A stretch of DNA of 64,000 nucleotides. Origin: a virus. How positions within the stretch are numbered: the stretch's first letter is position 1; every line of letters begins with the position of its first letter. This document shows, in pieces, positions 31,375-56,135 of the stretch. Both the position numbers and the translations under genes were made by a program. The stretch lies in the IMG/VR virus record IMGVR_UViG_3300037149_000100; one strand, 5' to 3'. The notes under the pieces were generated by a model. That model was not told the origin of the DNA, searched no databases, and was given only the letters and a program-made list of their open reading frames with translations.

Positions 31375-31460
31375 GCGACTGTACCCGAATTGGTATAGGG
31401 GCCAGCTTGAGGTGCTGGTGGTGCAAGCCATTGTGGGTTCGAGTCCCACCAGTCGTACCA
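31375..31460 (+). tRNA. tRNA-Leu(GAG)
   Basis: CCAGC-TTGAGGT-GCTGG; long arm; ACCA. Confidence 0.9.
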
Positions 31461-34556: not shown

Positions 34557-34630
34557 TGCGGAGTAGCTCAGTGAAAGAGCACCGGGCTTAGTTCCGGAGG
34601 TCGGTGGTTCAAGTCCATCCTCCGCAACCA
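34557..34630 (+). tRNA. fMet-like tRNA body with aberrant 6-nt anticodon loop (undetermined)
   Basis: TGCGGAG/CTCCGCA-ACCA; CCGGG-CTTAGT-TCCGG. Confidence 0.6.
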
Positions 34631-38032: not shown

Positions 38033-38207
38033 CTCTCAGAGAGCTTTCCGGGTCGGTTTCAAAGGGGACTACCCTATGTGGACCGTAGAGGCTGCATCAG
38101 CAGAGGATGCGATCAGACAGATTGTTAAGTCAAGTAATTCAGACGGACTAAACAATTTAAGAGAAGAAGACTTGGAAGCTAAGTAATACACATATAGGAG
38201 GTGTCCC

Positions 38208-38868
38208 GTGGACATCATGGTAGAAATAAGAGCCGCTGAGGGAGGGGAAGATGCTGTCCTCCTCGTGCGGGATCAACTGAAGGCATATCTTCGTCGTGTG
38301 GAGCGGAGGGGACTTTAGTGCAGAATTATTGGAAGTGACGACTGGGTTTGCATCCTTCCTCGTTAGAGGTGAGGGAGCGGAGGAGTTCTTCAACGAAACT
38401 GGGGGTCATCGGTGGCAACATGTGAGTCCCACCGATAAAAACAAACGTGTTCACACCTCCACTGTTACGGTTGCAGCTTTAGCGATGCGAGCTACCTCGA
38501 CCCACATGAACCCCAACGATGTGGAAATACAAACCACCAGAGGCTCTGGCCCAGGTGGGCAGAACCGAAACAAAGTGGAGAGTTGTGTCCTGGCGATTCA
38601 CAAGCCAACCGGACTTTCGGTGCGGATTGATGGTCGGTCTCAATTGAATAATAAGAGGATGGCATTGCAAATCCTAGCCACCAAGCTGGAAGACCAGCAC
38701 ACCGAGCAGGAACAGAAACGGGTCAGCAGGGATCGCAAGGATCAAGTCGGCACCGGCCAGCGTGGCGATAAAATCCGTACCTATAGGGTCAGAGACAACA
38801 TCGTCATTGACCATCGAACTGGTCAGAAATACCAGCTTTCTCGCTGGCTAGACGGAGTGAGAGAGTAA
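38208..38868 (+). CDS. class I peptide chain release factor homolog, split by a +1 frameshift at CTT-TAG (38313-38318)
   Basis: Frame 0 gives VEIRAAEGGEDA...YLRRVERRGL*; +1 frame gives ETGGHRWQHVSPTD...RVHTSTVTVA...GSGPGGQNRNK...GQRGDKIRTY. Confidence 0.9.
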
Positions 38869-38875
38869 GTAGTAA

Positions 38876-38947
38876 GCGGGTGTAGTTCAGTGGTAGAACG
38901 TTAGCTTCCCAAGCTAGATGTCGTGGGTTCAAGCCCCATCACCCGCT
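38876..38947 (+). tRNA. tRNA-Gly(CCC)
   Basis: TTAGC-TTCCCAA-GCTAG; GCGGGTG/CACCCGC-T. Confidence 0.92.
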
Positions 38948-39561
38948 CAAATATGTAATTGTTGCAGTTTCTTGATGAAGTTCAGAAGCCTCTGAAGGAC
39001 TTGCTCTTTTTGCTCTGCGGTTAATTTGGATGCTTCATCATTAAGCATCTGATCGGTGATATCCGTATCCCCACCGGTTTGAGCCAAGCAAAGCCAGAAG
39101 AATGCATCCGGCGCACTCTGCACCACTCCCGTGCCGGTCGCATACATCACGCCCAGGCACCCCATTGAGTAAGCCTCTCCCTGCTCTGCTGCGGCACTGA
39201 ACCATTGGACTGATTGCAGAAGGTCCACCGGCCCTCCAAGCCCTAGGAACAGCATTGCCCCCAGCTTAGCCTGGGCCTCCATCTGGCCCTTCTGAGCGGC
39301 TCTGAGGAGCCACTGACGAGCTTCCGGAAGATTCTTCTCTACCTCCGAACCCAACAACAGCATGACCCCCAACTGAGCCATACTGTCTGCATTGCCAGTC
39401 TTGGCCTGCTTTAGAGCTTCGGCTAGCCTCGCTGCCTTGACATCCTTTTCGACTGGAATTTGCTGTAAGGTAACATACGGTTGCGGGGTAGTGGGTGTGG
39501 CAGACTGACCGGCCCATAGGGATGCGGCGATAGTAAACGAGATGAGCCATTTGAGATTCAT
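38947..39561 (-). CDS. secreted Sel1-repeat protein
   Basis: Signal peptide; three AA..G...A...LG.M...G.G repeats. Confidence 0.85.
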   Translation of the reverse strand: MNLKWLISFTIAASLWAGQSATPTTPQPYVTLQQIPVEKDVKAARLAEALKQAKTGNADSMAQLGVMLLLGSEVEKNLPEARQWLLRAAQKGQMEAQAKLGAMLFLGLGGPVDLLQSVQWFSAAAEQGEAYSMGCLGVMYATGTGVVQSAPDAFFWLCLAQTGGDTDITDQMLNDEASKLTAEQKEQVLQRLLNFIKKLQQLHI

Positions 39562-40167
39562 GTTGGTCTCCTTGGGGAGGTTTCTCAAGTAACCCATAGT
39601 TAGTATTTTCTCAGCACAAAGCAATCTTTGCATTTCAGAGTATTATACTCACAGGAGCTAACATGTCTAAATCGGATACAATCGAACTGCTCAAGACCGC
39701 CAAGGCGGTTCGTATTGGCTACATAGGCGCGGATAGTGCGGTCTATCTGACCCCGGAATTCGCTGCCCAATTGGCCGAAGCGTTGGAGACACCCGAACCC
39801 ATAACCACTGAAACCAAGGGAACGCAGGAATTCCTGGACTACCTAGAGGCCAAGAGTCTGGGCCGGACGGTTGGCAAACCAGTTTGTTGCCAAACCTATA
39901 CCGCCCAGTCTTAAGAGGTAACAATGAGTTGGTTTAGTCATAAGGAACCGGATCAGGTTATGCTGGTTATGCACGATGGGGCACATGTTCTGGTTGCTTC
40001 AGAATGGTTTTGCGATTTACTCTACGCCTCCCCGTATGGCCCTGGAACAGATCTGGGACGATGCGAACTTCTGGTCGGTGGAGCTGTGGATGGGGTGAGC
40101 TATGTGAAGGGATGGAAGCCAGCTTCCCCAAACACTGAAGTTTATTACTGCCGTCTTATTTAACAAT

Positions 40168-48910: not shown

Positions 48911-48984
48911 GCAGCCGTAATTCATCGGTAGAATGGTTTGCTCTAACCAGACTTAGGCGGGTTCGACTCCTGTCGGCTGCACCA
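48911..48984 (+). tRNA. amber suppressor tRNA (CTA)
   Basis: GCAGCCG/CGGCTGC-ACCA; GTTTG-CTCTAAC-CAGAC; canonical T arm. Confidence 0.88.
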
Positions 48985-55579: not shown

Positions 55580-56135
55580 GAGACCCTGTGTTCACCTTGC
55601 TAATCTTTATTCTTTGCTTCATTGGATGGGTGCTGAACATCTTCAAGTTGGCCACTGACAATGATACGGTGGGGGTCTGCTTCACTGGAGGTAAGGATGA
55701 GGTGAAATCCTGGTTGGATGAGAGCTACCCAGGCTGGACTCAGTAATAAGTTGTTAGGCCACACTAGTGGGTTGCTTGGAGGACAGATGATTTATTCGAA
55801 ATCGCAAATCGCGGATGCGATTCATACGTATGTGAATATGCGAAAATCCTACATCGCATGGAAGCGACAGGTGGAGCATGATAAGGTGCTCCGTAGTGAA
55901 CCTGCGTTCATGGAGTGCAAGACGGAACTTAAGAACAAGGAAGCAGAGCTTCAACAGATGGCCATGAATCTGGGAATGGATGAGTGGGATGCAACTCAAG
56001 GGGCCGCAGCTTTAGGATTTCTGGATGGATTTTTGGCTGGTCTGGGCTGTCTTCCGGCTTACCGGGCTCAACGGACTCTCGGGGAAACACCTCAATCGAT
56101 CAATCCGATGGGCGATGATTATTATGAAGAGGATT

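Follow-up and report, generated by a model that had tools for sequence, protein, structure and literature searches.

We report a phage release-factor gene that is divided between two reading frames at a site built like the frameshift cassette of bacterial prfB. The gene lies at positions 38208-38868 of a 64-kb stretch of DNA from a jumbo phage (hereafter the window), and its split was confirmed from the DNA. Such a device has so far been described only for bacterial RF2 at UGA; here it is found in an RF1-type factor of a phage. We consider it likely that the gene is functional and specifies a short, RF1-derived factor whose synthesis requires a prfB-type programmed +1 frameshift. Among translation factors that gauge their own activity on the ribosome, RF2 with its frameshift is the textbook example.

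The layout of the locus is given in Table 1. An earlier note, made from the letters of the sequence alone, had proposed an AGGAGG-preceded GTG start, the run GGAGG-GGA-CTT-TAG-T, and a remainder with the GGQ motif in the +1 frame, all of which we confirmed base for base. Frame 0 translates as (M)DIMVEIRAAEGGEDAVLLVRDQLKAYLRRVERRGL, with the C-terminal end ...VERRGL, and leads into the local gate sequence CGG AGG GGA CTT TAG T. From 38317 onward the +1 frame meets no stop until the TAA at 38866-38868; it encodes the recognition loop HRWQHV-SPT-D, with the SPT tripeptide named in that note. Joined, the two parts give a product of 36 + 183 = 219 residues that starts near residue 110 of RF1, in agreement with the previous estimate of about 219 residues lacking domain 1. 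Past the gate TAG, frame 0 runs for 15 codons with no similarity to release factors before it stops, and readthrough of the UAG would thus yield nothing useful. The sequence GGA CTT T recurs in frame within ORF2 (GGA CTT TCG, Gly-Leu-Ser; 38611-38619); as no stop follows it there, no shift is expected at this second site.

Table 1. Features of the release-factor locus and of the tRNA genes discussed in the text (window coordinates)
Feature	Position	Strand	Remark
Shine-Dalgarno (SD) sequence AGGAGG	38196..38201	+	6 nt 5' of the GTG start; direct reading
GTG start of the release-factor gene	38208	+	Backed by homologues L002/L003, N-terminus M-D-I-I-V-E-I-R
ORF1, frame 0, 36 codons	38208..38315	+	First strand and helix of release-factor domain 2 (EIRAAEGGEDA...RRGL)
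Internal SD-like GGAGG (in CGG AGG GGA)	38305..38309	+	3 nt before the slip codon
Shift site CTT TAG T	38313..38319	+	CTT 38313-38315, TAG 38316-38318
ORF2, +1 frame, 183 codons and TAA	38317..38868	+	Rest of domain 2, recognition loop, GGQ domain 3, domain 4
Frame 0 back-up stops TAG AGG TGA	38364..38372	+	TAG 38364, TGA 38370; direct reading
Ser-Pro-Thr codons	38425..38433	+	Aligned to PAT 188-190 (E. coli RF1) and SPF 205-207 (RF2)
GGQ codons, peptidyl-tRNA hydrolysis motif	38554..38562	+	Invariant in the family alignment; E. coli RF1 233-235
tRNA-Gly(CCC)	38876..38948	+	Starts 8 nt past the release-factor stop
tRNA with anticodon CUA (amber suppressor)	48911..48984	+	ARAGORN

The two frames match consecutive parts of the RF1 profile TIGR00019 (positions 113-146 for ORF1 and 166-337 for ORF2) and are therefore pieces of one protein. 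The Pfam domain PCRF was detected in both ORFs and RF-1 in ORF2. The junction, RRGL|SAELLE, can be laid against RRGF-SIEITDE of the uninterrupted relative P0040. Aligned to E. coli RF1, ORF1 spans about residue 110 to W144, the frame changes after the equivalent of W144, and the product, which lacks domain 1, ends about 22 residues short of the RF1 C-terminus. ORF1 contributes one strand of the domain-2 sheet and the tip of the helix with which the first base of a stop codon is read. The identical site, CGGAGGGGACTTTAGT, is present in two further JGI metagenome contigs, of which one (L301) is 98.9% identical to the window across 3.9 kb. The other (L302) is 99.6% identical over the release-factor gene and the downstream tRNA (window 38197-39174), with unrelated DNA upstream. 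With the identical site in these two other assemblies and the same codon in 73 of 96 distinct relatives (see below), the split is far beyond chance. In L302, the match to the window ends immediately upstream of the ribosome-binding site (window ...AGGAGGTGTCCCGTG), with a TGTCC word adjoining the break, and the release-factor gene seems to move as a unit. It is absent from the nearest virus record that we compared, the 96-kb fragment G001.

The encoded protein is, by its sequence, an RF1-derived class-I release factor without domain 1. Among NCBIfam profiles it scored 154.7 bits with RF1, 104.8 with RF2 and 86.7 with PrfH, all under the curated cut-offs; both prfA equivalog models were missed by a wide range (TIGR00019, 154.7 against 423.25; NF001859, 152.2 against 400). 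Comparison with solved structures gave the same ranking (RF1, 122 and 114 bits; RF2, 82; PrfH, 63), the best matches being the RF1 proteins of Thermotoga and Thermus, with an alignment that covers RF1 residues 140-311 of 2fvo. We further computed a maximum-likelihood tree (quick search) from 91 family members together with five bacterial RF1 and five RF2 sequences. All family members grouped in one clade (SH-aLRT 100), and the branch that separates RF1 from RF2 (SH-aLRT 100) placed this clade with RF1. The residues with which RF1 reads the third stop-codon base, the HRxQ Gln and the HTS Thr, are kept, as is the Thr of the tripeptide.

Two other short GGQ proteins were considered and rejected as identities of the factor. 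PrfH was dismissed on its score (86.7 bits against a cut-off of 166.65 for TIGR03072) and on the lack of an RtcB-type partner gene recurring nearby, and ArfB because its model, NF006718, reached 27.2 bits against a cut-off of 100 in the GGQ region only, while the codon-reading domains 2 and 4 are present. The only longer relatives are ordinary RF1s, at no more than 51% identity, so that the short form is the rule in this family, and no PHROGs family is dedicated to the short factor. Domain 1 is unnecessary for codon recognition and peptide release and mediates RF3-dependent recycling (PMC1586002); the factor, having no domain 1, would thus act without RF3.

To follow the gate across relatives, we scanned IMG/VR with the family alignment, which recovered 369 relatives; 160 loci were fetched, and the removal of identical proteins left 96 distinct members, most of them on contigs that are fragments. 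A +1 frame change splits 73 of these, ten are in frame with in-frame stops, eight are uninterrupted and five could not be scored. The position of the split is constant: it falls at the 31st codon past the EIR motif in all 73 gated members, some of which are only about 41% identical. All but one of the 73 have CTT as the P-site codon, the exception being TTT. An SD-like GGAGG with a 3-nt spacer precedes the shift site in 39 gated members and other SD-like words do so in 21, with none in the remaining 13.

Selection acts on the nucleotides of the SD-like CGG-AGG themselves. In gated members the Arg codon at -4 is CGG in 51 of 60 cases and that at -3 is AGG in 42 of 44, so that the two codons are used at 85-95% at the site, compared with 16% (CGG) and 12% (AGG) of the Arg codons in the remainder of these genes. 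Relatives that have RRG or RKG but no gate encode it as CGT AAA GGA, CGG CGT GGT or CGC CGC GGC. A search for a stimulatory RNA structure 3' of the shift site found none (z = 0.29).

The expectation that CTT-TAG would be conserved among homologues was not borne out: the stop is TGA in 56, TAG in 14 and TAA in three of the 73 gated members, and the closest relatives have CTT-TGA. The base after the stop is C in 52 of the 73 and T, as here, in two; the contexts counted were TGAC (38), TGAG (13), TAGC (11) and TAGT (2). A weak UGA-C context matters in prfB, whereas the stop of the window gene is followed by T. In the protein database we found at least 854 relatives, nearly all of them entries of 170-220 residues that hold ORF2 only, and the N-terminal peptides of database relatives imply a TGA gate in 73, a TAG gate in eight and a TAA gate in one.

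In the ten relatives with in-frame stops, the gene looks as if it were gated by readthrough instead. Seven have one stop (TGA in L106, L108, L116, L156 and L160; TAG in L141 and L286) and three have two (TGA and TGA in L148; TGA and TAG in L154 and L155). In several of the ten, the domain 2 stop stands at a Phe/Tyr/Trp column about 10 codons beyond the usual shift site. Elsewhere on their contigs, all three codons seem to serve as stops. Gated short factors, with CTT TGA C, were also seen on two MAG contigs, binned into bacterial genomes (L162 and L163; 25 and 30 kb; bin labels Hydrogenophilales and proteobacterium).

We compared the gate with that of E. coli prfB, AGGGGG TAT CTT TGA C, which lies at codon 26 in domain 1. 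Common to both are an SD-like element, a 3-nt spacer, CUU as the P-site codon, an in-frame stop, the potential for +1 re-pairing on UUU, and their place in a gene for a class-I release factor. The phage gene differs from prfB in being RF1-derived, viral and devoid of domain 1; its gate lies in domain 2, at codon 36-37, aligned to RF1 W144 and RF2 F161; and where the prfB stop is UGA followed by C, that of the window phage is UAG followed by T, and those of the phage family are UGA, UAG or UAA. Since the phage gate is located in domain 2 of the other paralogue and that of prfB in domain 1, the cassette arose independently. The description of the site in the earlier note as an RF2-style frameshift is apt for the cassette, which is prfB-style and conserved, and needs correction for the rest, as the factor descends from RF1 and the gate is not homologous to the prfB position. 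The phage cassette arose where the ancestral motif Arg-Arg/Lys-Gly-aromatic (ARRW in RF1, SRGF in RF2) already approached the nucleotides that it requires. The prfB cassette was thus built a second time, at another codon, in another release factor lineage and in viruses, with all three stops across the family, which provides a natural experiment on what such a cassette requires.

With RF1 itself (prfA, TIGR00019), the phage factor shares GGQ, the tripeptide Thr, the third-base Gln and Thr, the 2-3-4 domain architecture and the best profile and structure matches; it differs in lacking domain 1 and about 22 C-terminal residues, in having SPT for PxT, and in its recoding gate. RF1 genes have been described as free of frameshifting (PMC1586002, 2006; PMC5009743), and according to a review of recoding from 2016, autoregulation of release factors is a matter of RF2, with RF1 counterparts unknown (PMC5009743). 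Our full-text literature searches found no description of an RF1-type frameshift gate. PrfH (RF-H), which is paired with RtcB, is also a short class-I release factor homologue with GGQ and without domain 1, but the phage factor keeps the RF1-type codon readers and has no conserved partner gene, and PrfH is not frameshift-gated.

Viral release factors have been reported in two other settings. In recoded phages, RF1 and RF2 form part of code-change modules, with no gate mentioned (Borges et al., bioRxiv 10.1101/2021.08.26.457843); these resemble our case in that a release factor is carried by a large phage beside tRNAs, and differ in that the window phage uses all three stops. A giant-virus release factor gene is expressed through readthrough and frameshifting, according to the passage of PMC5009743 that cites it. 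That factor is likewise viral and dependent on recoding, but it is of eukaryotic type, belongs to an amoeba virus, and is unrelated in sequence and signals.

By analogy with prfB, the gate of the window phage can be soundly inferred to sense UAG termination. A ribosome that has translated the 36 codons would pause with CUU, bound by tRNA-Leu, as its P-site codon and UAG as its A-site codon. Pairing between the 16S rRNA anti-SD and the GGAGG located 3 nt upstream would favour a forward slip. If the UAG is decoded slowly, the tRNA would re-pair on UUU and translation would continue in the +1 frame to the 219-residue factor; the speed of UAG decoding would thus set the outcome. As the slip wins when decoding is slow, output is predicted to rise when the infected cell has a low UAG termination capacity and to fall at high capacity. 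Three outcomes would compete at the gate: besides the shift, termination by an RF1-type factor, from the host or the gene's own product, would release a 36-residue peptide, and decoding by the phage's amber suppressor would give a 52-residue dead-end product. In this way the phage amber suppressor tRNA could pre-empt the shift.

What the product itself reads bears on whether the loop is closed. Because the RF1-type readers are kept (the tripeptide Thr and the third-base Gln and Thr), the factor most likely reads UAG and UAA, and if it does read UAG, it would limit its own synthesis by negative feedback in the manner of RF2. UGA, however, gates three quarters of the family, and an RF1-type factor is not expected to read this codon; self-feedback is therefore not the general logic of the family; it may not hold in the window phage either. 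Across the family, either the gate generally reports host capacity and not the activity of the product, or the factors read beyond UAA and UAG; that gate stops are freely exchanged is compatible with either reading.

The strongest alternative to a self-sensing gate, although we rate it as somewhat unlikely, is that the gate is real and serves without self-feedback, reporting host termination capacity or merely holding a potentially harmful factor at a low, fixed level, with the specificity of the product irrelevant. The predominance of UGA gates in an RF1-derived family (56 of 73) speaks for it, as do the switches in stop type, at least 15 in number, and the existence of ten relatives gated by in-frame stops and eight without a gate. 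The strict prfB-like cassette and the conserved weak stop-C context, on the other hand, suggest a tuned, stop-dependent switch and not a plain attenuator, and an active RF1-type product at a UAG gate would feed back automatically.

A second alternative, which we hold to be unlikely, is that the factors have broadened specificity and read UGA besides UAA and UAG, so that any gate stop would be self-sensing, with SPT, and perhaps PPN, as specificity variants. Such a factor would account for the predominance of UGA gates and for the ease with which gate stops are exchanged, and the loop of the window protein indeed mixes an RF2-like Ser-Pro with an RF1-like Thr. The first residue of the tripeptide is said, in work from Ito et al. 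in 2000, to set second-base discrimination, and Ser-first loops arose at least five times. Yet most members have PPT, which is the PxT pattern of RF1, the RF1-type Thr is kept, and Ser-first loops are enriched with TAG gates and not with TGA gates, which broadened specificity does not predict. Pushed further, the same idea would make the protein a broadly specific, possibly omnipotent factor that regulates itself through any gate stop and forms a mutual-antagonism switch with the phage amber suppressor tRNA: if true, the tRNA would read the gate through and block release-factor synthesis, and the release factor would compete with the tRNA at every other UAG. This elaborate version, too, strikes us as doubtful.

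It is very improbable that the locus makes two separate polypeptides or that ORF2 is translated by re-initiation from the internal GGAGG as a ribosome-binding site, as the SD-like word upstream of ORF2 and the listing of ORF2 alone by gene callers might suggest: the nearest in-frame start past the SD-like word is a TTG at 38329, 17 nt away, re-initiation needs neither CTT in 72 of 73 members nor a stop at the exact codon, and ORF1 holds the stop-codon-reading helix tip and a strand of the domain-2 sheet. A pseudogene, or an assembly or sequencing indel, is effectively refuted even though no error is commoner than a one-base change of frame, given that three assemblies agree on the site, that the exact site is common to 73 diverged relatives, and that both frames are intact and conserved with the SD-like element under selection; the concern voiced in the earlier note, that homologues might expose a simple indel, was answered in favour of a genuine split.

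Returning to the prfB-type frameshift as the preferred reading, we asked how the amber stop and the SPT loop of the window gene are distributed in the family. Nearest to it are L082 and L083, at 73% identity and with SPT, and L084, with PPT; L303 (PPT-type, 84% over ORF2) and L304 (68%) come next. Each of these relatives has CTT TGA at the gate, and the TAG is thus a recent change in the lineage of the window phage. On the tree, the type of gate stop changed at least 15 times.

The motif that the earlier note had called a hybrid is present, but it proved to be a recurrent minority variant of PPT, the form found in most members; it also occurs with TGA gates and is weakly enriched with TAG. In the IMG/VR set, Ser-first loops occur in four of 14 TAG-gated and four of 56 TGA-gated members, and in the protein set in four of eight with TAG against nine of 73 with TGA (Fisher p = 0.02), both comparisons being uncorrected for relatedness. 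An independent-pairs test of SPT and TAG, which has no power, gave only five contrasts on supported branches with p of 0.25 or more, and the link between SPT and TAG is unproven. We found no clear relation of the gate stop to GC content or stop usage. In 15 of the 73 gated members the tripeptide is PPN, where Asn replaces the stop-codon-contacting Thr of RF1; this change is recurrent.

The release-factor gene lies inside a tRNA array, as a tRNA-Gly(CCC) gene follows it almost directly (Table 1), and at least five tRNA genes are found within 10 kb in 42 of the 96 relatives. No conserved partner gene emerged: no neighbour family occurs in more than eight of the 96 loci. Directly downstream in the window, on the minus strand (38947-39633), is a gene for a Sel1-repeat protein of 228 residues whose N-terminus is hydrophobic. 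We considered an alternative genetic code and rejected it, since all three stops are used in the window and in 21 relatives' contigs that were scanned whole. In the window, TAA ends 33, TGA 30 and TAG 18 of 81 ORFs; with UAG ending about 22% of its ORFs, UAG termination matters to this phage. Large phages thus bring, and would themselves regulate, a termination factor under the standard code.

The presence of tRNA-CUA and a TAG gate in the same phage is a real co-residence and not a family rule. Within 10 kb of the gene, tRNA-CUA was found at three of 14 TAG gates and one of 56 TGA gates; scans of whole contigs erased this link, with tRNA-CUA in none of 11 further TAG-gated and two of ten TGA-gated contigs and tRNA-UUA in one TGA-gated contig, and we therefore rejected matching of the gate stop to a suppressor tRNA as a rule of the family. 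A 95%-complete sister phage with a TGA gate carries 44 tRNAs and no suppressor. The genome of the window phage joins a putative gate for sensing UAG with an RF1-type factor and its own amber suppressor tRNA, and the three would make up a compact system for the study of competition at a stop codon. The split also has a consequence for annotation: for hundreds of these genes, the 3' ORF is all that gene callers report.

Ochre (UUA) or amber (CUA) tRNAs were located in TGA-gated relatives that use the standard code (G028, 136184-136259; G027, 163347-163423; G031, 55958-56035). The window also contains a tRNA-like gene with an irregular anticodon loop (34557-34630; reported by ARAGORN as 'tRNA-???' with anticodon 'ta'). 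Finally, the window phage encodes a tRNA-Leu(GAG) (31375-31460), as does the sister phage G007; this tRNA reads CUU and is the slipping species in the prfB mechanism.
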